DNA of 27,695 nucleotides from an uncultured Planctomycetia bacterium. GTDB lineage: Bacteria; Omnitrophota; Gorgyraeia; 2-02-FULL-51-18; JAGOUK01. The DNA lies in assembly GCA_964532445.1 (NCBI GenBank), contig CAZHID010000002.1, forward strand, positions 1-27,695, in the 5' to 3' direction. Both the position numbers and the translations under genes were made by a program. The notes under the pieces were generated by a model that worked only from the letters and a program-made list of their open reading frames with translations, was not told the DNA's origin and searched no databases. Below, piece by piece: positions 291 to 11,193 of the stretch (position 1 is the first letter of the stretch; each line of letters starts with the position of its first letter).

Positions 291-3044
291 TTAACCGGTC
301 GATTTCATTCCGAAGGAGATACCGTTCGTGGTGAGGAGCAGAACTTCACCGATCTCGTTCTTCGTCTCGTCGCTCAGGCGCTCATAGCCCGGTTCGCGCA
401 TCTTTGAGAGATAGCGCAGCTGGAGGAAGTTCAACGGATCGACGTAGGGGTTGCGCAGACGGATCGAGGCGTTCAGCACCTGGAGACGCTCAAGCAGGCG
501 CCGCTGACCGGTGATCTGGATCACTTTTTCGACCGAACGGCGGTGCTCGCTTTGGAGACGTTTGTGGATATCCTCACGGAGCTTCGTGTCATGCACCAGC
601 TGCGAATACAGCTCAGCGATATAAAGGTCCGCCTTGGCCAGGGAGATCTGGACGTTGTCGATCAGCGACCGGAAGAACGGCCATTCGGCGTACATGGCCT
701 TGAGCTCGCTGAGCCCGGAGCCCTTGCGCTCGCGGATGAACTGGTCCACGGAGGCACCGACGCCGTACCAGGACGAAACGATGTAACGCGACTGCACCCA
801 GCTGAACACCCAGGGAATGGCCCTCAGGTCCTCGATGCGGCGCGACGCGCGGCGCTTGGCGGGACGTGAGCCGATCTTGGTCATCTCGATCACCTGGATC
901 GGGGTCGCCTGATAATAAAAGTCGAGGAAGTTGTCCGTCTCGAAGATGAGCTCCCGATAGAACTTATGGGACGCCGAGGACAGGAATTCCATTTTTTCTT
1001 CCCACGCGCGGGTCTGCGGCGTGGACTCACGGGACTTGGAGACGGTGTTGGTCCAGGCCACCGCGGTGATGAGCTGCTCGATGTTGCGCGCGGCGATCGT
1101 CGGGTTGGTGTACTTCTGCGACACCACCTCCCCCTGCTCGGTGATCTTGATGCGTCCGCCGAATGCCGCGAACGGCTGCGCGAGAATGGCGCGGTGCGAC
1201 GCGCCGCCGCCGCGGTCGACGGTCCCGCCCTTGCCGTGGAAGAACCTCAGCTCGATCTTGTGGCGCATCGCGGTCTCGGCGAGTTTTTTCTGCGCCTGAT
1301 TGAGCTTCCAGTTGGCGGTGAGGTACCCGCCGTCCTTGTTGGAGTCCGAGTATCCGAGCATGACCTCGTGCAGGTTCCCGCGCGAGGCGACGTACGACTG
1401 GTAAATGGGGATCGTGAGCAGCCGGTCCATGATGGCCGGCGCGGCGGCCAGCGCGTCGATCGTCTCGAAGAGCGGCACGATGCTGATGCGCGACTCCTTG
1501 ACCTGGTAATTCTCCACCATGATGAGGCCCGTGAGCTTGCAGAGGAAGAAAAAGCCCAGGAGGTCCGAGGGCTTCTCGGACATCGAGATGAGGTAGTTCT
1601 CGACCATGCCCTGATAGGACTTCTCCGAGAGGTCGCGGATCGTCCGAAGCTGCTCGAGGATGTCCGCGGCGTCGGCGGACAGCTCCTTGGGTACCTTGTG
1701 CAGGTCTTTTTCGAGGATCTGTTTGATGAGCTCGTCCTCGTCCGGCTCCTCGCCGAGGACCTCACGGACGGCCGCGCGGATCTTCGAGCTGTGGTCGCGG
1801 AAGTCGAGGCGCGCCATGTGGAAGCCGAACACGCGCACCTGGTCGATGAGACGCTGGAGGTCGCCGGCCGCGGCATGGCGGCCGCGGTTGGCCTTGAGAC
1901 TGCGCGAGATCACCTCGAGGTCCTTGGCGAACTCCTCGGCGGATGAGTAGCCGTACCCCTCTCCGGCGAACGTATTCTCGAGCTTCTTGTGGATCAGCGA
2001 AAATTTCTTGCGGTACATCTCGGTGGACTCGTACCGCTTCATCTCGCGGGCGAGGTCGGGCAATTTTTCGCAGTCGAACGCGATCGACTCCATGATCTCG
2101 TCCGACACGGGGATACGGACCGTCGACTGGCTGAAACGACGGATCAGTTCCTCGACCTGAGCGAGGTAGGTCCCGAACATCACCTCGCGGTGTTCGCGGG
2201 CGGTACGGCGTGTGACGTCGCAGGTCACGAACGGATTGCCGTCGCGGTCGGCGCCGACCCAGGACCCGAAGCGCACGAACGGCGGCGCCGGAAAGTCCTC
2301 GCCCGGATAGACCAGGCGGAATTCCTGACGGAGCTTCTCATGGACCGCCGGCACAAGCTTGAGGATGGTCCGCTTGAAGTAGAAGCAGGTCTGCTCGACC
2401 TCGTCCATCACGTTCATCTTGCGCTGGCGCACCTCGGAGGTCTGCCAGAGCACCTCGAGCGTGCGCTTGATGTCCTCGAGCAGGACATCGCGTTCGAGGA
2501 AGGTGCGCTCGGCACGGTTGATCTCGGTGAGCGCGGTGTCGATGCGCAGAAGGTGGTCGAGGACCGTGCGGCGCTTGGCCTCGGTCGGATGCGCCGTGAG
2601 GACCGGTTCGACCTCCAGACGCGAAAGCTGCTCGCGCGCGTCGGCGGCCGAGACGCCGCGGCGCTTCAGGTCGTTCAGGAGCTTGCGCAGCGACATGTCC
2701 TGCTGGCGCGACGGATCGCGGTCGTAGTCGCGGATCCGGCGGACGCGCTGCATCTCCTCGGCGATGTTGACGAGCTGGAAAAAGATCGTGAACGCGCGCG
2801 CGACCTTGTAGGCGTCGTCGAGCGAAAGGGAGTCGATGAGTTTTTCGAGCTTCTTGACGAGCTTGCTGTCGTGGCGCGCGCGGATGGCCTTGGACGCGCG
2901 GCGGATCTCCTCGATGATGTCGAAGAGGCGCTTGCCCTCCTGCTCGCGGATGACCTCACCCAGGAGCGTGGTCAGAAAGCGCACGTCCTTGCGGAGACGG
3001 TCGAAGCTCGAGAATTTGGCGGACTGGTCGTGGGCGGCTCTCAT
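291..3044 (-). CDS. ppc: Phosphoenolpyruvate carboxylase (bacterial type, 917 aa)
   Basis: Motifs VLTAHPTE (catalytic His), GSWVGADRDGNP, EVMLGYSDSNKDGG (catalytic Lys), FHGKGGTVDRGGG, TEQGE, GSRPAKRR, LRAIPWVFSW, LRNPYVDPLN and C-terminal GMKSTG. Confidence 0.97.
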   Translation of the reverse strand: MRAAHDQSAKFSSFDRLRKDVRFLTTLLGEVIREQEGKRLFDIIEEIRRASKAIRARHDSKLVKKLEKLIDSLSLDDAYKVARAFTIFFQLVNIAEEMQRVRRIRDYDRDPSRQQDMSLRKLLNDLKRRGVSAADAREQLSRLEVEPVLTAHPTEAKRRTVLDHLLRIDTALTEINRAERTFLERDVLLEDIKRTLEVLWQTSEVRQRKMNVMDEVEQTCFYFKRTILKLVPAVHEKLRQEFRLVYPGEDFPAPPFVRFGSWVGADRDGNPFVTCDVTRRTAREHREVMFGTYLAQVEELIRRFSQSTVRIPVSDEIMESIAFDCEKLPDLAREMKRYESTEMYRKKFSLIHKKLENTFAGEGYGYSSAEEFAKDLEVISRSLKANRGRHAAAGDLQRLIDQVRVFGFHMARLDFRDHSSKIRAAVREVLGEEPDEDELIKQILEKDLHKVPKELSADAADILEQLRTIRDLSEKSYQGMVENYLISMSEKPSDLLGFFFLCKLTGLIMVENYQVKESRISIVPLFETIDALAAAPAIMDRLLTIPIYQSYVASRGNLHEVMLGYSDSNKDGGYLTANWKLNQAQKKLAETAMRHKIELRFFHGKGGTVDRGGGASHRAILAQPFAAFGGRIKITEQGEVVSQKYTNPTIAARNIEQLITAVAWTNTVSKSRESTPQTRAWEEKMEFLSSASHKFYRELIFETDNFLDFYYQATPIQVIEMTKIGSRPAKRRASRRIEDLRAIPWVFSWVQSRYIVSSWYGVGASVDQFIRERKGSGLSELKAMYAEWPFFRSLIDNVQISLAKADLYIAELYSQLVHDTKLREDIHKRLQSEHRRSVEKVIQITGQRRLLERLQVLNASIRLRNPYVDPLNFLQLRYLSKMREPGYERLSDETKNEIGEVLLLTTNGISFGMKSTG

Positions 3045-3050
3045 AGCCGA

Positions 3051-3827
3051 TTATGATATCACACGGTCATCCAGGCGGAAGCGGATGGGGACCTGCACGG
3101 TGGATTCGACGGACAGCGGTCCGACCCGGGCGGGCTCAAAGATCCAACGCCGGACGGCCGCGAGTGCCGACCGGTCCAGATGCTCGTGGCCCGAACCTTC
3201 AAGAAGACTGACCTCCTTGGGCCGGCCCGAACGGTCAACGACCACTTCCAGCAGGACCAATCCCTCTTCCCCGGCGCGCCGGGCGGCTTCCGGATAACGC
3301 GGGGCGGGGTTCCTCAAATAACTCGGTTTTGCGGCGACTTGCGCGCCGGATGACGCGCGCTGACTCACCGCGTCCTGGCCCGGAACCGCGGAACTACCGT
3401 CGCCGATCGGGCCGGGTCGGGACGCGATGGGCGGTTGGACCGCGGCGGCAGGAGGCGGCTCGGCGAGAACCGCTTCCGACGCCGGTTCGGGCTCGGATTC
3501 GATCGCGGGGGTGGGTTCGGGTTCCCGGACCGCTTCCACCGGCTCTTGGACCGGTTCTTGCTGAACGGTATCCGCCGCTTCCGCGGCCGCCGGCAGCGCG
3601 GCGATGAGCTCGACCTCGATGGCGCTCGCGCCTTCGGTCACACCGTACCCCGCCGGACGGGTCCACAGCCAGCCGCTTAGAAGCAGCATCGCTCCATGCA
3701 GCACGACCGAAAGAACGAATCCCTTGATCGGGTCATGGCGGTCCGGCATGAACGGTGCGGAGCGTTCGGACCGTCCGCGGACCCCGTGCGGTACGACGGA
3801 GGCCGGGGCTGACGCGGCCGCGTTCAC
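3051..3827 (-). CDS. tonB: Energy transducer TonB
   Basis: N-terminal anchor SVVLHGAMLLL (SxxxH motif), Pro/Glu-rich linker (EPVQEPVE..EPEP), TonB_C domain (YLRNPAPRYPEAARRAGEEGLVLLEVVV...WIFEPA...VPIRFRL). GTG start overlaps the exbD stop (GTGA); ATG at 3749 is an alternative start. Confidence 0.9.
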   Translation of the reverse strand: MNAAASAPASVVPHGVRGRSERSAPFMPDRHDPIKGFVLSVVLHGAMLLLSGWLWTRPAGYGVTEGASAIEVELIAALPAAAEAADTVQQEPVQEPVEAVREPEPTPAIESEPEPASEAVLAEPPPAAAVQPPIASRPGPIGDGSSAVPGQDAVSQRASSGAQVAAKPSYLRNPAPRYPEAARRAGEEGLVLLEVVVDRSGRPKEVSLLEGSGHEHLDRSALAAVRRWIFEPARVGPLSVESTVQVPIRFRLDDRVIS

Positions 3828-4240
3828 GCGTCGTCCCGCCGCGTCTGGATCATGACTTTTTGGATCCCCGCCCGCCGGATCTCATCGAGCGCGCGGACGA
3901 CCGAGCCGAACCCGGCCGCGTCGTCCCCGTTCAGGACCACTCCGGACTCCGGATGCTCACGGCGCAGACGCTCCAGACGCGCGGGCAAAGCCTCAACAGG
4001 AACCGCCTCTTTGCCGAGATAGAACAGACCGTCACGGTCCACAGTCAGCGTGAACGTTTCCGCGCGATCGATGACCGCCGACGTCCGGCTCCCAGGGAGC
4101 TTCACGGTCACCCCCTGGTTCTGGACCATCGAGAGACTCACCATCACAAACGTCGCGAGCAAAAAGAAAACGATGTCGATGAGCGGGATGATCTCGATCC
4201 TCGCCTTGCGGCGCGCGTGCGGCGAAACGATGCGGATCAT
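3824..4240 (-). CDS. exbD: Biopolymer transport protein ExbD
   Basis: IEIIPLIDIVFFLLATFVMV (conserved TM Asp), VVLNGD...VVRALDEIRRAG; ATGA overlap with exbB. Confidence 0.93.
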   Translation of the reverse strand: MIRIVSPHARRKARIEIIPLIDIVFFLLATFVMVSLSMVQNQGVTVKLPGSRTSAVIDRAETFTLTVDRDGLFYLGKEAVPVEALPARLERLRREHPESGVVLNGDDAAGFGSVVRALDEIRRAGIQKVMIQTRRDDA

Positions 4241-4848
4241 GAGCCTTGAGCGCTCCGGTCCTTGAGCAGGAGCTCCAGGTGGTTGGACGCGTCCTCCAGC
4301 TCGTGACGGGCTTCCTCAAGCCGCGCGTTGAGGTAATTGAACGGCAGGAGCGACACGATCGCGATGCCGAGGCCGAACGCGGTCGCGATGAGCGCTTCGG
4401 CGATGCCGCCCGTGATCGCCGACGGCGCGTCAAGCTGGCTTCCGCCGATGAGACCGAAGGCCCGGATCATCCCGGTCACGGTGCCCAGAAGTCCCAATAA
4501 AGGCGCGAGCGTGATGATCGTGTCGAGCTCCGGAAGGCCCCGGCTGAAACGCTTGAGCTCCTGGTTGGCCGCGCGCAACAGCGCGTTCGAGAACGACGTC
4601 CCGCGATGGGCCAGACCCGCGGCGAGGGTGCGCGCCACGAAGTCCGGAGAACCTGAACCGATCTTCGCCCCGGCGTCCGGCTGGCCGCGCTCGACGGCCC
4701 GCAGGATCTCCTCGACCGACCCTGGCCGCCGGCTGACGCGCTCGCGCCAGATGAAAAAGACGCGCTCCAGCGTGATCGAAAGCGCCGTGACCGATGTGAC
4801 GAGCAGCGGCCACATGATCGGGCCGCCTTTGACGAAGATCTCTATCAT
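4237..4848 (-). CDS. exbB: MotA/TolQ/ExbB proton channel protein ExbB
   Basis: APLLGLLGTVTGMI and GGIAEALIATAFGL motifs. Start reassigned to ATG 4848 (MIEIFVKGG), which has GGGGA upstream and avoids overlapping the receptor gene. Confidence 0.92.
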   Translation of the reverse strand: MIEIFVKGGPIMWPLLVTSVTALSITLERVFFIWRERVSRRPGSVEEILRAVERGQPDAGAKIGSGSPDFVARTLAAGLAHRGTSFSNALLRAANQELKRFSRGLPELDTIITLAPLLGLLGTVTGMIRAFGLIGGSQLDAPSAITGGIAEALIATAFGLGIAIVSLLPFNYLNARLEEARHELEDASNHLELLLKDRSAQGS

Positions 4849-4852
4849 GCGA

Positions 4853-7012
4853 TCATCCCCACTTGTATTTGAACCCGCCAAAGGCGTTGCGCCCGTCGGC
4901 AGGATCGATGCCGTCCCCGCGAACCCTCGCAAAGTAATGTTCGTCGAACAGATTGTTCACGCCCGCGAACGCGGTCCACGCGTCCGTGATGTCCCAATCG
5001 AACGTGAGGTCCCAGACCTTGTACGAAGACACCGTTAACTGCGCAGTATTATTGTCGTTGGCGAAATGGTCGTCAACGAAAGTCGCGGCCAATCGCGCGC
5101 GCAGCCGTTCCTTCCACCCTGCCTGGATCCCGGCCTTCTGGATGAAGTCCGGCGCGTATTGGGGCGTCTTGCCGGTGTTCGGCCCGCCGGTGAATTCCGC
5201 GTCCAGGAACATCGTGTTGTAAAAAAGCTTGAGACTGGCCTCCGCGTCGGCCCCGGACTCCGCCCCGAGCAAACCCAACGCGTCGAGCTCGAACGCCGCT
5301 TCCACGCCCTGATGACGGGCATCGCCGACGTTCTGGACCGTGCTCAAGCCGCCGATCGTCGCGCTGCCGATCTGATCATCAAATTCCATATAAAAGTAGC
5401 TCACATCGACGGAAAGATGGCGGAAAAAGCTCCCGCGCAAACCCAGGTCCGACTGCCACGACCGCCCTTCCTGGAGGTCCTGGTTGACCACCTGGTTCGT
5501 GCCGTTCGGGACCGCCTGCGTGAAGATCATCGGCCGGTAGCTTTGAGAAAAGTTCGCGTAGCCCGTAAGGTCCGGAGCAAGCTCAAGTTCCGCGGCCACG
5601 CCGGCCAGCGCCACGAAGTCGTGGATGGACTCATCCGACAGCGGCACGGTCGTCGTGTGGAGGTTGATGTTCTCCTGAAGGTCCTGCCAGATGTTCTCCA
5701 GCCGCACGCTCGGCGTCACCGACAGCACACCCATGCGGAACAAGTTCTCCGCGAACACGGACAGGTAATTCAGCGAGCGGTCCGCGTCCTTGCGGACCGA
5801 TCCGTCGACCGCATCAGCGGTGAGACCCCGCTTGTCGATACGCGGTGAATCCGTCTGATGGTACAGCGCGCCGTAAGTCAGCGTGTGTTCGTTCTCGGAG
5901 AAAAAAGCCGGATAATCGCGGCGGATCCTGGCTTCAACGCCGAGGGTGTCGAATTCCTGGTTCTCGATGTCGTTGGTCGACGCGGTCGCTCCGCTCGGAA
6001 CGGTGCCAAAACCGCCGCCGCGCTGACGCCAGCTCAAACGCTCATAATGCGTGTAATAGGCCTTGGCTTCCAAGCGCGTCGCCTCGTCGAGGTCCCGCTC
6101 GAACGCCAGCCAGCCCGCATAGCGGTTGAGCTCGAAGCGGTCGGCAAGCTTGGCGGTGAACGCGTCATCCAGGTCGAATTGGGCGCGGGTCAGACCGCCG
6201 GGTTCCCCGTGCGCTTCCTCGTACAGATCAAGACCCAGAGTCCATTTGCCGTCCAGTCCGCGATCCCACACGAGCTTGAGACCCGCCCCATCCACCTCCG
6301 ACTGGCTATTGAAGTCTCGGAAGCCCTGGGATTCCCGATGGTGATAATACCCGTGATACCCGAGGCCGGAACCGTTGTCCGTTCCGCTCACCGATGTGTA
6401 GTTGGAAAAAAGGTCGTTCGATCCCCAGCTGTTCTCGGTCGACACCTGAAGCGGTGAGCCCTCATAGGGGTCCACCGTCACAAAGTTGAGCGCGCCGCCC
6501 GGCTGCGGACCATACATGAGCGCGGCGCCTCCGCGCAGGAACTCCACACGGTCCACCGTCTGGACCGCGGGCACGTAATAGGCTTCCGGATAGCCGAACA
6601 TGTCCGCATGGATCGGGATCCCGTCCTTGAGCACCTGGGTGAACTGCGCGCGGTGCGGCTCGAGTCCCCGGTAACCGACGCTGAAGAGCGGCGTGGACTC
6701 TTCGCTCAGCAGAAGTCCGGGAGTGCTCTGAAGCACCTGCCGGAAGTTGTTGTTGATCACGGGCGGCGCGTCTCCGAGCCGGATCACTGACGATTTTTTT
6801 CCGGAGTAGATCTTCGTGCCGTCGACCGCCGGAAGCGACTCAACGACGGTCCCCGCGCCGGTGCCCGACGCGTCCCGATCTCCGGACACGACCACCTCGT
6901 CCATCACCGTCGAAGAGGTCGCGGCGTGGGCCGGACCGGACAGCATCACAAGCAGATAGAACCATGCCCGCGCCTTGGCATTGGGGATCAGGTATTGTTT
7001 GCACATGTTCAT
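4853..7012 (-). CDS. TonB-dependent outer-membrane receptor, FecA-like (719 aa)
   Basis: Signal peptide ending PAHA; TonB box DEVVVSG; plug motifs LQSTPGL, VGYRGL and DRVEFLRGGAALMYGPQPGGALNFVT; C-terminal GVNNLFDEHY...GRNAFGGFKYKW. Start at ATG 7012 with AAGGA SD. Confidence 0.9.
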   Translation of the reverse strand: MNMCKQYLIPNAKARAWFYLLVMLSGPAHAATSSTVMDEVVVSGDRDASGTGAGTVVESLPAVDGTKIYSGKKSSVIRLGDAPPVINNNFRQVLQSTPGLLLSEESTPLFSVGYRGLEPHRAQFTQVLKDGIPIHADMFGYPEAYYVPAVQTVDRVEFLRGGAALMYGPQPGGALNFVTVDPYEGSPLQVSTENSWGSNDLFSNYTSVSGTDNGSGLGYHGYYHHRESQGFRDFNSQSEVDGAGLKLVWDRGLDGKWTLGLDLYEEAHGEPGGLTRAQFDLDDAFTAKLADRFELNRYAGWLAFERDLDEATRLEAKAYYTHYERLSWRQRGGGFGTVPSGATASTNDIENQEFDTLGVEARIRRDYPAFFSENEHTLTYGALYHQTDSPRIDKRGLTADAVDGSVRKDADRSLNYLSVFAENLFRMGVLSVTPSVRLENIWQDLQENINLHTTTVPLSDESIHDFVALAGVAAELELAPDLTGYANFSQSYRPMIFTQAVPNGTNQVVNQDLQEGRSWQSDLGLRGSFFRHLSVDVSYFYMEFDDQIGSATIGGLSTVQNVGDARHQGVEAAFELDALGLLGAESGADAEASLKLFYNTMFLDAEFTGGPNTGKTPQYAPDFIQKAGIQAGWKERLRARLAATFVDDHFANDNNTAQLTVSSYKVWDLTFDWDITDAWTAFAGVNNLFDEHYFARVRGDGIDPADGRNAFGGFKYKWG

Positions 7013-7055
7013 TTTTTCCTTCGTATCGGACGCGCTAGGTACTTGTTTGGCTCGG

Positions 7056-7117
7056 GCGCTTTTCATCCCTGGCGATTTTTTTATAAAAGCGCTTGGCGGT
7101 CCGCCCATCGGCGGACC
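7056..7117. repeat. Two adjacent inverted repeats in the phnE-receptor spacer
   Basis: GCGCTTTT (7056-7063) / AAAAGCGC (7085-7092), and GGTCCGCC-CATC-GGCGGACC (7098-7117, perfect 8-bp stem). Confidence 0.6.
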
Positions 7118-7133
7118 TTTCAAAAGATCCCGG

Positions 7134-7922
7134 TCAGGCCTTGCGGCCGACCGCGTAACTGAAGGCTTTGCGCACCCGGAAGCTCACGGCGTCCACGACG
7201 ACCACGACCGCGAACGTGAGCAGGAGCGCCGTCATGAGGCTCCGGTACTGGAGCATCTGCGCGTATCCCATCATGTAATACCCGATCCCGCCCGCGCCGA
7301 CGAATCCCATGATGGTCGACGCGCGAACATTGTATTCGAACATAAAGATGAGCTGGCTCAGCACCTGATTGGCCGTTTCGGGCAGAACGCCGTGCCAGAA
7401 CACCTGCAGGCGGCTCGCGCCGACGCCGCGGAGCGCCTCCACGACCTCCGGATCCGCGGCCTCGAACGTCTCGTAATAGAACTTGGCGAGATACCCCACC
7501 GTGTAAGCCGCGACGGCGAGCACGCCCGCCTTGGCGCCCAACCCCACCACGACGACCGCGATGAGGCCGTAGATGATCGACGGAACGGAACGGATCGCGC
7601 CGATCAGGACGCGCGCCGGCACCGCGACGGCCGGACCGAAGAGCGAACGGTCCGCGAGACATCCCAGCGGCACGGACACGATGAAACCGATGAGCGTCCC
7701 CGCGAAGGCGATCTCGATCGTCTGGAAAAGGGAGCCGATGAGCGTGCCGAGTGACGATGGGTCCGGCGGGAACATCCGTCCGATGAAGTCCGCGCCGTTC
7801 GCCCAGGAACGCCCCCAAGACTCGCCGCTCAGGAGCCCCAGATGTGCGGCCGCGGCGACGCCGGCCGCGAACACCGCCCAACCGATCACCTGATGGGCGG
7901 TCCGCCGCGTCAAAGTTTTCAT
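7134..7922 (-). CDS. phnE: PhnE/PtxC-family ABC transporter permease
   Basis: QTIEIAFAGT, IRSVPSIIYGL, GYLAKFYYETFE, EAA-like ALRGVGAS, GVLPE, FEYNVRASTIMGFVGAGGIG; ATGA overlap with phnC. Confidence 0.88.
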   Translation of the reverse strand: MKTLTRRTAHQVIGWAVFAAGVAAAAHLGLLSGESWGRSWANGADFIGRMFPPDPSSLGTLIGSLFQTIEIAFAGTLIGFIVSVPLGCLADRSLFGPAVAVPARVLIGAIRSVPSIIYGLIAVVVVGLGAKAGVLAVAAYTVGYLAKFYYETFEAADPEVVEALRGVGASRLQVFWHGVLPETANQVLSQLIFMFEYNVRASTIMGFVGAGGIGYYMMGYAQMLQYRSLMTALLLTFAVVVVVDAVSFRVRKAFSYAVGRKA

Positions 7923-8632
7923 TGGATCTTCTCCAGCAGTTCAGCCGCCAGGACAGGACGCGCCCGGTCGAGCATCACGCGGCCGTTCTTGAGCGCGATC
8001 ACGTGGTCCGCGGTCGCCGCGGCGACGTCCAGATCGTGCGTCGTGATGATCCAGCCGATCCCGCCGGCCGCGGTCTGCCGCACGAGCTCCAGCATTTCAA
8101 GCGACGTGACCGCATCGAGCTGCGAAACAAATTCGTCCGCGAGCACGAAGTCCGGCCGGCGCAAGAGGCACCGCGCGATGGCGACCCGCTGACGTTCGCC
8201 GCCGCTCAGGTCCCCGACGATCTCCTGCTCCTTGTGGGCTAGCCCCACGCGTTCCAGCAGCGCTCGCGCTTCGCAGAGCAGCGGGGCCGGCCAAAGCCCC
8301 GGCATGGAACGCAGAGCGCCCACGCGAGCGAGCGCGCCGGACAGAACGTTCTGCAGCGCGGTCTGATTGCGTACAAGACCGAGCCCTTGAGGGACATAGG
8401 AAGTGACGCTGCCCGGAGAGCGCCGGATCGCGCCGGACGAGGGCTTTAAAAGGCCCTGCAGAAGTTTGAGCAGCGTCGTCTTGCCTGACCCGCTGCGGCC
8501 GACGAGCATCGTAACGGCCCCCGATCGGGCGCGCAGCCCCGCCCCGTCCAGCACGCGGGGACCTCCGGGATACGCGAAGCTCACCTGTTCCGCGGTGATC
8601 TCTGCCTGGGGGACGGCGCGGCTCAAAGTCAT
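7919..8632 (-). CDS. phnC: PhnC/PtxA-family ABC ATPase
   Basis: Walker A GRSGSGKTT, Q-loop YVPQ, signature LSGGERQRVAIAR, Walker B VLADE, H-loop TTHD; LSGALARVG is PhnC-like; ATGA overlap with phnD. Confidence 0.85.
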   Translation of the reverse strand: MTLSRAVPQAEITAEQVSFAYPGGPRVLDGAGLRARSGAVTMLVGRSGSGKTTLLKLLQGLLKPSSGAIRRSPGSVTSYVPQGLGLVRNQTALQNVLSGALARVGALRSMPGLWPAPLLCEARALLERVGLAHKEQEIVGDLSGGERQRVAIARCLLRRPDFVLADEFVSQLDAVTSLEMLELVRQTAAGGIGWIITTHDLDVAAATADHVIALKNGRVMLDRARPVLAAELLEKIQ

Positions 8633-9594
8633 TTCTTTTCCGTGAATTCCAGACCCGTGCGCTCCAGCATCCCGGCCAGCGCGGACAAATGCCCGCTCCC
8701 CGCCCGCTCGAAGCGCACAAAGATACCTGACACGAACTTCCGCATGAGCGCGCGGTGCTCAGGCGCGTTCAACTCCAACAGCGCCGCCGTCAGCCTTTCG
8801 CGGTCCGCGGACCCGAGCGTTTTAGCCGCGACGACGGCGTGGGACGGGATCGGCCCCTGCTCAGCCACGACGCGGGACGCCGCCAGCGCTTCGACAAAAA
8901 GTTTTTCGGGCACGTCTCCCGCGATCACCGTCACGTCGACCTGGCCCGACTTGAGCGCCTCGACCCCCTGCGGATAACCGCCCGCAAAAAGCACCTCTGA
9001 GAAGAACTGCTTGGGATCCGCCGCGCCGGCAGCCGATCTGACGACGAGGCCCTCAGCGACGAGCTTGTCGAGCGGAGCGACATAACCGGAGGTCGAGATC
9101 GGGCTCGGGAACGCGGCTTTGTGGCCGCGCAGATCGGCGAGCGTCTTCACGGGTCTGTCCGGACGCACGATCCAGTAAGAGCGGTAATTGGGCGCCTCGC
9201 CAAGTTTCCCATCCACCATGACCTCGCGGACCTCCGAGAGGATCACGCTCGCCCCCGCCTCCCGTTCAGCGAGCCGGGCCGGCCAGGCGCCCATGAACGC
9301 CGCGTGCGCGTGGCCATAACGGAGCGCTTCGACGACCCCCGCGTAACTCGCCGGAAAAAGGATCTCGATATCCCGGCCAAGCTTTTTTTCCAAAAAAACC
9401 TCGAGCTCCTTCGCCTGGTCCGATAACGCGGCCGTAGTCGCGGTCGGTTGGACGGCGATGACCCACTTGGCCGACGGCTGGGAACCGCTCCCGGCCGCGT
9501 CTGCCGGCTCGGGGGCGATCAAAAAAGAAGCGGCCACGAACACGATCGGCGCCGTGACCAGCGCGAGCGCTCTGAGCATATACCGGATTTCCAT
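8629..9594 (-). CDS. phnD: PhnD/PtxB-family substrate-binding protein (321 aa)
   Basis: Signal peptide ending PADA; ASYAGVVEAL, YRSYWIV, FPSPISTSGY and GQVDV motifs. Start reassigned to ATG 9594, with GAAAGG SD overlapping the hemP stop. Confidence 0.85.
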   Translation of the reverse strand: MEIRYMLRALALVTAPIVFVAASFLIAPEPADAAGSGSQPSAKWVIAVQPTATTAALSDQAKELEVFLEKKLGRDIEILFPASYAGVVEALRYGHAHAAFMGAWPARLAEREAGASVILSEVREVMVDGKLGEAPNYRSYWIVRPDRPVKTLADLRGHKAAFPSPISTSGYVAPLDKLVAEGLVVRSAAGAADPKQFFSEVLFAGGYPQGVEALKSGQVDVTVIAGDVPEKLFVEALAASRVVAEQGPIPSHAVVAAKTLGSADRERLTAALLELNAPEHRALMRKFVSGIFVRFERAGSGHLSALAGMLERTGLEFTEKK

Positions 9595-9605
9595 ATTCAC
9601 GCCTT

Positions 9606-9788
9606 TCATTTGGTCAGGATCAGCTTTCCCTGCTTCGTTTTCATAAGCCGGTACAAAATACCGCGGTGGCGGATCCAAACGGATGATGCGGTGCCCAATA
9701 TCCGCTCCGAATCGACCACTTTTTCGGCGCTAGGATTCAGCACCGGGTCTTGACCTTCGTCTTGTGACGCATGGGACGGATCTAACAT
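9606..9788 (-). CDS. hemP: Hemin uptake protein HemP/HmuP family
   Basis: VDSERILG...VWIRHRGILYRLMKTKQGKLILTK matches the HemP pattern (I.H.G..Y.L..T..GKLILTK). Start uncertain: ATG 9788 overlaps a Fur-like box, and a downstream GTG is possible. Confidence 0.9.
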   Translation of the reverse strand: MLDPSHASQDEGQDPVLNPSAEKVVDSERILGTASSVWIRHRGILYRLMKTKQGKLILTK

Positions 9789-9805
9789 TGCGACTGATTC
9801 TCATT
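9787..9805 (-). promoter_or_regulatory. Fur-box-like operator
   Basis: Minus strand AATGAGAATCAGTCGCAAT matches AATGAGAATnATTCTCATT at 15 of 18 defined positions (hand count); lies in front of hemP and a TonB system. Confidence 0.7.
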
Positions 9806-9813
9806 GATAGGTT

Positions 9814-9848
9814 AAAAAGAAACCTGATTTCTAATGAAACCAGGTTTC
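9814..9848 (-). terminator. Intrinsic terminator-like hairpin (RRM gene terminator and/or leader attenuator)
   Basis: Minus strand GAAACCTG-G-TTTC-ATTA-GAAA-T-CAGGTTTC forms a 13-bp stem with one G-U pair and a 4-nt loop, followed by TTTTT. Confidence 0.65.
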
Positions 9849-9868
9849 AATTGAGACTTGATCTTATC
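9833..9868. promoter_or_regulatory. Two further 19-bp Fur-like dyads
   Basis: AATGAAAC-CAG-GTTTCAAT (9833-9851, near-perfect dyad) and ATTGAGACTTGATCTTATC (9850-9868, 12 of 18 to the Fur-like consensus); the second covers the predicted -10. Confidence 0.5.
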
Positions 9869-9889
9869 AGTCTTAATCTACGAAGTCAA
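9861..9889 (-). promoter_or_regulatory. Sigma70-type promoter pointing at hemP
   Basis: TTGACT (9889-9884), 17-nt spacer, TAAGAT (9866-9861), with an extended -10 TG. Confidence 0.7.
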
Positions 9890-9899
9890 CAGGATCGGA

Positions 9900-10352
9900 T
9901 CAGTCCATCTGCTGCGAGGAGGACGAACGGCCGCTGCCCCCGCGACGTCCGCGAAAACCTCCGCGGCTTCTGCGAAAACCCCCGCGATTGCCGCCCTGTC
10001 CCTGGCTGCCCTCGGGACGCGGACGCGCTTCGTTGACGTTGATCGCGCGGCCCTTGAGCTCTTCCCCGTTCAGGGCGCGGATAGCGGCCTGGATCTCGGA
10101 GCGGTTACTCATCTCGACGAAGCCGAAGCCCTTGGACTGGTTGGACTGACGGTCGCGGACGACCTGCGCGGAAGTGACCCTGCCGTGCGGCTCGAACGCC
10201 TTGCGGAGGTCCTCGTCGGTCACATCGTAGGAGAGGTTACCGACATAGAGCTTGAGCGAGCTCCCGCTGGAACCCGAATGACCGCCGTAGCCCGATGATT
10301 TCTTAAACCCGAAAAAAGCCGCTATTTTGGAGAAAAAGGATTCTGATGACAT
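9900..10352 (-). CDS. RRM (RNP-1) RNA-binding protein with N-terminal extension and RGG-rich tail (150 aa)
   Basis: RNP2 LYVGNL, RNP1 KGFGFVEM, INVNEARPR, tail RGGFRRSRGGFRGRRGG. ATG 10352 is the nearest in-frame start upstream of the RRM; the ORF-track start (10448) lies inside the predicted promoter. Confidence 0.92.
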   Translation of the reverse strand: MSSESFFSKIAAFFGFKKSSGYGGHSGSSGSSLKLYVGNLSYDVTDEDLRKAFEPHGRVTSAQVVRDRQSNQSKGFGFVEMSNRSEIQAAIRALNGEELKGRAINVNEARPRPEGSQGQGGNRGGFRRSRGGFRGRRGGSGRSSSSQQMD

Positions 10353-10432
10353 AGATGTGTGTGGTTGATCGTGCGGAAATAAGGAGCGGTTGATGATCGA
10401 ACTACGATAACAATGCGAACTGCGAACGCGGC

Positions 10433-10461
10433 AGTATAGCACCCCCACCCTTCCGTTTCAA
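10433..10461 (-). promoter_or_regulatory. Strong sigma70-type promoter of the RRM gene
   Basis: TTGAAA (10461-10456), 17-nt spacer, TATACT (10438-10433), with an extended -10 TG. Confidence 0.75.
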
Positions 10462-10496
10462 GAAAAGCGCCCCTTCGGTTGCCCGAAGAGGCGCTT
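10459..10496 (-). terminator. Intrinsic terminator of the Spy-like gene
   Basis: Plus strand AAAGCGCC-CTTCGG-TTGC-CCGAAG-A-GGCGCTTT; on the minus strand the stem is followed by TTTTCTT. Confidence 0.75.
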
Positions 10497-10551
10497 TGAA
10501 TGAACGTCCGCCGCGCTTCGCTCCGGGGGAGCGGAACGGGCCCAAGACCGC

Positions 10552-11193
10552 TTAGGCCTTGTGGTGGTGATGTCCCGCGTGCCCGGCCTTCTTGAGCTCC
10601 ATGGCCTTGGCCTTCTGCTCAGGGGTGATGATCGCCTTGAGGTCCGCGTACGCCTTGACCGTGGACTTGGCGCCCAGGGCCATGCCCGCCATACCGCTGT
10701 CGATCATCGACTCCAGGGCTTCCACGTCGACCTTGTCCTGGCCGAGGCGGTTTTCCATCTCAAGCGCGAAGATCTGCATCTCGGCCATGCCGCGGATGGA
10801 GTTCTTTTCGACCTCGAGGTCGAGGGCCTTGATCTGGGCGATCTGGTCATCGGTCAGACCCAGCTCGTCCTTGTGCTCCAGGATCCAGCAGACCTTCTGG
10901 CAGAACTTCGCGGCGATCGGGCAGGGCGAGGAAGCGTGACCGCAGCCGCGGCCGTAACCGCCCATCTTCTTGCAGGAACCGGACTTGGCGCAATCTCCGC
11001 CCTTGTCGCAGCTCCCTTTGGCGCAGCCGCCCATCATGCCGCCCTTATCGCATCCACCTTTCATCCCGCCGCTGATCGGGCAGGACTTGCCTTCCGGACC
11101 ACCCTCGTGATGACCGGCGATCGCGGGCAGAGCCGCCAAGCCGAGCATGGTTACGATCGCCAGGACCGGTAAAAAGATTTTCTTATAGTTCAT
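10552..11193 (-). CDS. Secreted Spy/CpxP/ZraP-like protein with Cys/Gly-rich N-terminal region and His-rich tail
   Basis: Signal peptide ending PAIA; GGGAGG SD; LTxxQ-type motifs ELGLTDDQ and ITPEQ; 10 Cys in residues 38-102; C-terminus GHAGHHHHKA. Confidence 0.7.
   Translation of the reverse strand: MNYKKIFLPVLAIVTMLGLAALPAIAGHHEGGPEGKSCPISGGMKGGCDKGGMMGGCAKGSCDKGGDCAKSGSCKKMGGYGRGCGHASSPCPIAAKFCQKVCWILEHKDELGLTDDQIAQIKALDLEVEKNSIRGMAEMQIFALEMENRLGQDKVDVEALESMIDSGMAGMALGAKSTVKAYADLKAIITPEQKAKAMELKKAGHAGHHHHKA

Follow-up and report, generated by a model that had tools for sequence, protein, structure and literature searches.

A PhnD-family ABC transporter within a TonB-dependent receptor operon of an uncultured bacterium: a candidate ferric iron uptake system

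An operon on contig CAZHID010000002.1 of an uncultured Planctomycetia bacterium (assembly GCA_964532445.1, assigned to Omnitrophota by GTDB) joins an ATP-binding cassette (ABC) transporter of the phosphonate (Phn) family to a TonB-dependent receptor and the small protein HemP, and very probably has a role in iron uptake. The window considered here is the whole stretch of 27,695 nucleotides (nt) at positions 1 to 27,695 of this contig, the second contig of a 1.98-Mb metagenome-assembled genome (MAG) that is 88.7% complete. Its DNA turns up in wastewater and freshwater metagenomes; all of the sequencing runs that contain the locus are DNA runs, and none are RNA runs.

Genes and signals of the operon

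The operon comprises eight co-directional genes on the minus strand (9889-3051), encoding HemP, a substrate-binding protein (SBP) of family PF12974, an ABC ATPase, a PhnE-type permease, a FecA-like TonB-dependent receptor, ExbB, ExbD, and TonB (Table 1). An earlier examination of the DNA letters by a model (hereafter, the sequence-only reading) had named these families, and family profile matches bore it out. The tight couplings that it described were recovered when the junctions were read in the sequence: 11 nt separate the hemP stop from the ATG of the SBP gene, ATGA overlaps occur at the SBP/ATPase and ATPase/permease junctions, and the receptor, exbB, exbD, and tonB genes are joined as listed in Table 1. 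HemP is probably a regulator of receptor expression.

The components of the transporter differ in their closeness to characterized phosphonate systems. The permease, which presumably works as a homodimer, exceeds the cutoff of the PhnE equivalog model (TIGR01097), and PhnC is the closest family to the ATPase, yet the ATPase scores 157.7 bits against TIGR02315, for which the equivalog cutoff is 266.1. The sole solved relative of the receptor at an E value of ≤0.001 is FecA (5e-21); its score against the FecA equivalog model is 108 bits (cutoff, 1100), and a domain profile search detected no N-terminal signaling (STN) domain in it. The receptor gene as called begins with a TTG at 7123, and because the signal peptide and TonB box first appear about 38 codons downstream of this TTG, the true start is probably near 7012, which would therefore leave about 120 nt between the permease gene and the receptor gene.

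Table 1. Positions of the operon genes, the following gene, and upstream elements in the window, in the direction of transcription
Feature	Position	Strand	Remarks
Promoter-like element	9861..9889	-	TTGACT, 17 nt, TAAGAT, with TG before the -10; same element at the same position in relatives L004 and L012
Hairpin	9814..9848	-	13-bp stem, 4-nt loop, T5 run; between the promoter-like element and the Fur-like box
Fur-like 7-1-7 box	9789..9803	.	15 bp; 2 mismatches to lineage consensus; ends 1 nt before the hemP ATG
hemP/hmuP-type small protein	9606..9788	-	60 amino acids; PF10636, 50.8 bits
Periplasmic SBP, PhnD fold	8629..9594	-	PF12974, 160 bits
ABC ATPase	7919..8632	-	PF00005
PhnE-type permease (BPD_transp_1)	7134..7922	-	TIGR01097, 234 bits (cutoff, 216.7)
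TonB-dependent receptor, FecA-like	4853..7123	-	Plug and barrel
exbB	4237..4848	-	PF01618; ATG 4 nt after receptor stop
exbD	3824..4240	-	PF02472; ATGA overlap with exbB
tonB	3051..3827	-	PF03544; GTGA overlap with exbD
ppc (phosphoenolpyruvate carboxylase gene)	291..3044	-	ATG 6 nt after tonB stop

Upstream of hemP, the sequence-only reading had placed several Fur-like boxes over the promoter. One good box is present (TGAGAATCAGTCGCA on the minus strand) and constitutes the only match in the window, at ≤3 mismatches, to the 7-1-7 consensus of this lineage; the claimed overlap with the promoter proved weaker, in that only a site with 4 mismatches overlaps the -10 element. No site in the window comes within 3 mismatches of the E. 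coli 19-mer Fur consensus, which was dropped as a search pattern in favor of the 7-1-7 lineage consensus. The hairpin could act as a leader attenuator, as terminator of the upstream RNA recognition motif (RRM) gene, or as a tiny RNA. It is kept in the related locus L004 and, with altered stem letters that include one compensatory pair, in L012; in both, equivalent boxes lie 3′ of it. The order of promoter-like element, hairpin, and Fur-like box is thus common to the window (9814-9889), L004 (9850-9945), and L012 (9825-9905), with a constant distance between box and hairpin and a variable distance between box and start codon. Farther upstream, genes for an LTXXQ-domain protein and the RRM RNA-binding protein (window 9900-11193) are arranged as in the two closest relatives (L002, 8530-9824; L004, 8548-9855).

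At the other end of the operon, no terminator-like site lies between tonB and ppc, and ppc is probably cotranscribed with the operon in this genome. It was rejected as a member of the conserved module because relatives carry feoA-feoB at the position that it holds in the window.

Searches of the 88.7%-complete assembly turned up no FecCD-type permease, FeoB, FTR1, or PhnJ. Matches to FeoB_N were discarded as weak, partial GTPase matches, and FeoB_C was not found. Because no FecCD permease, FeoB, or FTR1 was found, the operon is the only recognizable dedicated iron importer in this assembly. The sequence-only reading had likewise remarked that the usual FecBCDE/HmuTUV-type transporter is replaced by a Phn-family one and that the window has no carbon-phosphorus (C-P) lyase or ptxD gene; in the assembly, neither FecCD nor the C-P lyase protein PhnJ was found (ptxD itself was not searched for). 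The genome contains two fur genes and three TonB-dependent receptors, the second of which is encoded on the contig of the window, some 13 kb past it (G000 contig 2, 40754-41086), and the third on contig 150.

Conservation of the module and its Fur-like boxes

A neighborhood survey of the kind that the sequence-only reading had suggested was run on 80 genome loci of SBP relatives, scanned with hidden Markov models (HMMs) built from the operon genes, and the gene order proved to be conserved. The survey included 27 diderm loci (16 from the Planctomycetes-Verrucomicrobia-Chlamydiae [PVC] group, 10 from Acidobacteriota, and one from a MAG labeled "Bacillota") and about 51 monoderm or archaeal loci. 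A receptor adjoins the triad of SBP, ATPase, and permease genes in 21 of the 27 diderm loci, namely, in 13 of 16 from the PVC group, 7 of 10 from Acidobacteriota, and the "Bacillota"-labeled MAG, and, as expected, the Chloroflexota and archaeal loci possess the triad without a receptor. The Acidobacteriota receptors are of a different type, with HMM scores of 95 to 240 versus >1000, and the pairing of receptor and triad was therefore assembled more than once.

In metagenomic relatives whose SBPs are 71 to 72% identical, the RRM gene is followed by the SBP, ATPase, permease, and receptor genes, exbB, exbD, tonB, feoA, feoB, hemP, a ferritin gene, and a second receptor gene. A relative with a 58%-identical SBP has the order receptor, SBP, ATPase, permease, exbB, exbD, tonB, feoA, and feoB, and a genome labeled Omnitrophota has hemP, receptor, exbB, exbD, tonB, one unannotated gene, SBP, ATPase, permease, and fur. 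Three loci (L012, L020, and L023, corresponding to genomes G003, G017, and G010) belong to the same taxonomic order according to a genome tool and bear the public labels "uncultured Planctomycetia" or "Candidatus Omnitrophota." A row of receptor, SBP, ATPase, and permease also occurs at L106 (313-5249), whose SBP is a distant family member (31% identical) with the Tyr207 and His252 residues described below; the receptor there was called as two genes (Plug and barrel), perhaps owing to a frameshift. For two more-distant representatives, the contigs ended too soon to reveal the gene neighborhood.

The recurrent neighbors of the triad are genes of iron metabolism. Across the 80 loci, fur occurs in 8, hemP in 6, and feoAB in several, and no genes of phosphorus catabolism are among the recurrent neighbors. 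In the approximately 51 loci from monoderm Chloroflexota and archaea, the most recurrent neighbor is a repressor of the DtxR/IdeR family, which lies divergently just upstream of the triad in 22 loci, and the FTR1 iron permease adjoins the triad in 8. Two recurrent clusters of "unknown" neighbors were eliminated as antisense shadow frames of the DtxR gene.

Some single loci contain further genes. A ferric-reductase-domain protein and ApbE (flavin transferase) are encoded tail to tail with the triad on a Dehalococcoidia contig (L010, 12468-13951), and in a Dehalococcoidia MAG a 690-amino-acid frame directly after the triad fuses FTR1 to a 4Fe-4S (Fer4_5) domain (L078, 12461-14530). The iron clusters of some relatives (L009, 9531-9989; L006, 6957-7406) also encode small exported proteins that match no Pfam family, one of which is rich in His; the window has no counterpart to them.

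Fur-like boxes conforming to the pattern TGA[G/T]AATnATT[C/A]TCA are enriched approximately 50-fold at the heads of these clusters. Among the 80 loci, 14 of the 25 matches at ≤2 mismatches fall in cluster-head windows, which make up 2.4% of the DNA (binomial P = 6e-17). Shuffles that preserve local composition yielded a mean of 0.26 cluster-head matches and a maximum of 2. The boxes also precede triads that lack a receptor, in Acidobacteriota and at one Chloroflexota locus. Judging from these sites, a Fur-family repressor is the putative regulator of the operon.

The binding-protein pocket and its kinship with transferrins

PF12974 is the sole significant family match of the SBP, which does not belong to the FbpA family. 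It passes the broad subfamily model TIGR01098 (124 bits; cutoff, 112) and does not reach the PhnD equivalog level (TIGR03431, 105 bits; cutoff, 261.1), and it is distant from the solved proteins PhnD, PtxB, HtxB, AioX, and ArrX (E values of about 1e-10 for the single sequence and 1e-18 as a profile). Its AlphaFold model (mean predicted local distance difference test score [pLDDT], 90.6) has ArrX, PtxB, and PhnD as its top Foldseek matches, with E values of about 1e-21. Members that are 50 to 79% identical occur in MAGs labeled Planctomycetota or Omnitrophota and in Acidobacteriota, Chloroflexota, Rokubacteria, Thaumarchaeota, Halobacteria, and others, and all public and automatic names for the family denote a phosphonate binder.

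The residues lining the pocket are conserved within this family and differ from those that bind phosphorus oxyanions. Nine residues are invariant in 40 members from many phyla: Tyr137, Ser167, Ser169, Gly170, Gly206, Tyr207, Asp227, His252, and His302. Pocket positions were mapped by alignment to solved E. coli PhnD and PtxB, read together with a study of such proteins (PMC5700983), and the pocket residues of the SBP fall on the PhnD ligand-contacting positions Y93, S127 to S129, H157, E177, and D205. Tyr137 occupies the place of the hinge Tyr of PhnD and PtxB, and Ser167 to Ser169 that of their STS loop, such that the SBP retains the anion loop Ser167-Thr168-Ser169, followed by Gly170. In SBPs for phosphorus oxyanions, the STS-H motif hydrogen-bonds the oxygens of the ligand (PMC5700983). 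This motif is incomplete in the SBP, where the position of its His is held by the invariant pair Gly206-Tyr207, with Tyr207 standing for the His itself. Similarly, the cap residues Asp/Thr/Glu of PhnD, Tyr/Asp of PtxB, and the Asp-Arg pair of HtxB are not kept; the invariant His252 stands where PhnD has Asp205 and PtxB has Tyr208, and Asp227 corresponds to Glu177 of PhnD.

These two replacements are coupled. Among 95 representatives of the 50%-identity clusters nearest to the SBP, 43 combine Tyr207 with His252 and 35 combine His207 with a residue other than His at position 252, and no representative has both His207 and His252. The two states are mutually exclusive, and within the Tyr207/His252 branch, position 227 is Tyr, Asp, or His. 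The oxyanion-binding pocket has therefore become one of Tyr, Tyr, Asp/Tyr, and His that keeps its anion loop, and this is the chemistry of the transferrin site. A site for Fe3+ and an anion is accordingly a prediction from residue positions, and it would comprise Tyr137, Tyr207, Asp227, His252, and the Ser167-Thr168-Ser169-Gly170 loop.

Kinship with transferrins is evident in both sequence and fold. The SBP family profile matches transferrins with E values of 8e-9 to 1e-3, and a profile of the central region retrieves an insect transferrin first (5e-10), followed by ArrX (1e-8), PhnD (1e-4), and PtxB (2e-3). We take the iron ligands of human transferrin to be Asp63, Tyr95, Tyr188, and His249 and its anion site to consist of Thr120, Arg124, Ala126, and Gly127. 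In three transferrins, the first Tyr of the YY/YE motif, which is the hinge-strand iron ligand (human Tyr95), is the residue on which the central-region profile places the invariant Tyr137. The profile also aligns the STSG loop with the transferrin carbonate loop at the N terminus of a helix, with Gly170 on Gly127 and Ser167 at the Arg position. In a sub-threshold segment, it sets the family sequence IPSHAVV against VPAHAVV of melanotransferrin, which places His252 opposite His279. The Pfam Transferrin model (PF00405) matches 8 of 40 SBP relatives at an E value of ≤0.05, one of which passes its threshold (24.8 bits versus 20.3), and 51% of the members of an archaeal Atlas cluster carry the Pfam Transferrin domain. 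Foldseek searches with the SBP model return the PhnD family first and transferrins directly after. Published work (McQuaid 2018, as cited in PMC7676907) traces both transferrin and phytotransferrin back to periplasmic proteins that bind phosphonate.

A candidate ferric pathway, its alternatives, and known systems

The transporter most likely imports ferric iron, because its SBP has the transferrin-type set of Tyr and His residues and adjoins iron regulators in many bacteria and archaea. The overall reading that we favor, and consider fairly likely to be correct, is a Fur-controlled ferric-ion pathway resembling the FbpA system and built on a transferrin-like SBP of the PhnD lineage; direct, transferrin-like binding of Fe3+ by the SBP is predicted with a confidence slightly above an even chance. 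The FecA-like receptor, powered by its own ExbB-ExbD-TonB, would carry a ferric species into the periplasm, where the PhnD-fold SBP would capture Fe3+ directly, as transferrin or FbpA do. The ligands would be Tyr137 on the hinge strand, Tyr207 in place of the phosphonate-binding His, His252 in place of the cap Asp or Tyr, and probably Asp227, and the loop at the helix N terminus would hold a synergistic oxyanion, either carbonate or phosphate. The loaded SBP would then dock on the dimer of the PhnE-type permease, with import driven by the PhnC-like ATPase, whereas HemP would act as a small regulator and a Fur-family repressor would control the operon.

The sequence-only reading had proposed noncanonical iron import through a Phn-family transporter, and this part of it is strongly supported by the conserved gene order, by the adjacent fur, DtxR, hemP, feoAB, and FTR1 genes, and by the enrichment of Fur-like boxes. 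It had also suggested iron-phosphate or iron-phosphonate chelates, a phosphorus-containing siderophore, or coupled scavenging of iron and phosphorus. Such substrates are not supported, because the STS-H His and the cap residues have been lost and Tyr and His gained at the proposed positions of the Fe3+ ligands of transferrin, and because no gene for phosphonate or phosphite catabolism was found in the genome (again without a search for ptxD itself) or recurs in the 80 loci.

Several observations weigh against a transferrin-like, Fur-controlled pathway. With regard to the binding site, the alignment of His252 with transferrin is a sub-threshold segment, and a subprofile of the C-terminal third of the SBP (A3) retrieved no transferrin, only chance matches to ribosomal protein L30. 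The equivalence of Tyr207 with Tyr188, drawn from position and a motif and not from a tool alignment, is accordingly tentative. No counterpart to transferrin Asp63 was identified in the SBP, where Asp227, from the other lobe, may serve instead, and the SBP of the window itself falls below the threshold of PF00405 and gives no match. With regard to regulation, the Fur-like box comes after both the promoter-like element and the hairpin, an unusual place for an operator, its consensus was chosen once the box of the window had been seen, and DtxR-family neighbors can also sense manganese. Finally, the module is patchy: of 30 genomes from this taxonomic order, only 3 possess it. It behaves as an accessory, mobile uptake module.

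The most probable alternative, which we nevertheless regard as unlikely and which corresponds to the version of the sequence-only reading, is import of a small ferric chelate in place of bare Fe3+: the FecA-like receptor would deliver ferric citrate or a complex of iron with another organic acid, phosphate, or phosphonate, and the Tyr/His pocket would contact the chelate. All of the iron context fits this possibility equally well, the receptor has no solved relative other than FecA at an E value of ≤0.001, no terminator-like site separates tonB from the ppc gene that follows it, and the SBP has retained its anion loop. But the pocket derives from one of phosphite or phosphonate size and is lined with invariant hard-metal ligands, and known SBPs for siderophores and citrate belong to another cluster and act with permeases of the FecCD type, none of which was found here. 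Moreover, the adjacency of ppc is not conserved, its place being taken by feoAB in relatives, and the same SBP occurs in monoderms and archaea without any receptor.

It is improbable that the substrate is a metal oxyanion or a metal other than iron (Mn2+ or Zn2+, for example), with the neighboring genes encoding regulators of the Mur, Zur, or MntR type. Some members of both the Fur and the DtxR families do sense other metals (manganese sensors occur among the DtxR proteins that have a FeoA-like domain), and other members of PF12974 bind arsenite, arsenate, or selenate, but the neighbors are specific to iron (hemP, feoAB, FTR1, ferritin, and the ferric-reductase domain), the boxes resemble Fur boxes, and a set of Tyr, Tyr, His, and Asp with an anion is the classical site for Fe3+. 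Most improbable of all is a true importer of phosphite, phosphonate, or phosphate that merely lies beside iron genes, or coupled scavenging of iron and phosphorus, as the PF12974, TIGR01098, and PhnE equivalog scores, the closest solved proteins (PhnD, PtxB, and HtxB), and the uniformly phosphonate-based public names would have it, whereas the SBP is far under the PhnD equivalog cutoff (105 versus 261 bits), its STS-H His and cap residues are replaced (PMC5700983), no PhnJ was found in the 88.7%-complete genome, no phosphorus-catabolic gene is a recurrent neighbor, and iron regulators recur beside the triad in unrelated phyla.

If the SBP does bind bare ferric iron, it would represent a third lineage of SBPs with this capacity, beside FbpA and the cluster A metal binders; diderms have this PhnD-derived lineage behind TonB-dependent receptors, whereas monoderms and archaea use it alone. 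In full-text literature searches, no prokaryotic PhnD-family protein was found to have been described as having an iron role. The genes are named as phosphonate or phosphite transporters everywhere. They would be miscounted in any survey that takes phnD-like genes as a measure of phosphonate uptake, and the capacity for iron uptake would be underestimated in MAGs labeled Omnitrophota or Planctomycetota, in Acidobacteriota and Chloroflexota, and in ammonia-oxidizing archaea. The SBP would also offer an experimentally reachable prokaryotic relative of transferrin in which to study the evolution of an oxyanion site into an iron site. More tentatively, and with less than an even chance in our estimation, the Tyr207/His252 branch of PF12974 may be the prokaryotic stock of the transferrin iron site, which would have arisen in bacterial and archaeal ABC SBPs by the coupled His-to-Tyr and Asp-to-His switch in a phosphonate-type pocket and been inherited by eukaryotic transferrin and phytotransferrin, making the branch a widespread, unrecognized form of ferric import that has been counted as phosphonate uptake.

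Compared with known systems, the operon combines features of several. It shares with PhnDCE, PtxABC, and HtxBCD the three-gene architecture, the fold, the Ser-Thr-Ser loop, two conserved Tyr residues, and a permease at the PhnE equivalog level. It differs from them in having Tyr for the STS-H His and His for the cap residue (Asp in PhnD and Tyr in PtxB), in showing no link to C-P lyase, ptxD, or htxA (ptxD not having been searched for), and in its Fur and DtxR neighbors, as opposed to Pho-regulated genes. Like FecABCDE, it is a putatively iron-regulated, TonB-dependent system that ends in an ABC importer, and the closest solved relative of its receptor is FecA; unlike FecABCDE, it has no FecIR signaling domain or partner, no FecB, and no FecCD. 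The likeness to transferrin and phytotransferrin (ISIP2a) extends to the fold of the SBP, to profile matches over the strand bearing an iron-ligand Tyr and over the anion-binding helix N terminus, and, in a sub-threshold segment, to a PSHAVV-type His motif, although the SBP is prokaryotic, has a single lobe, feeds an ABC transporter, and has Ser at the position of the carbonate-binding Arg.

A close parallel is the ferric-ion pathway of Neisseria, Haemophilus, and Moraxella (a receptor of the TbpA/LbpA/FetA type, FbpA, and FbpBC, also called Sfu, Hit, or Fut). In that precedent, iron passes from TbpA or LbpA to FbpA and FbpBC, and the class III FbpA site consists of three Tyr residues and carbonate (PMC10182148). 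The operon departs from this pathway in that its SBP is of the PhnD lineage (PF12974), its permease is encoded by a single PhnE-type gene as opposed to a fused FbpB, and it has a FecA-like receptor, its own ExbBD-TonB, and hemP. The two have in common a TonB-dependent receptor that leads to a two-lobed type II SBP and from there to a type I ABC importer with a BPD_transp_1 permease, together with a Tyr-rich site and synergistic anion that are established for FbpA (PMC10182148) and proposed for the operon.

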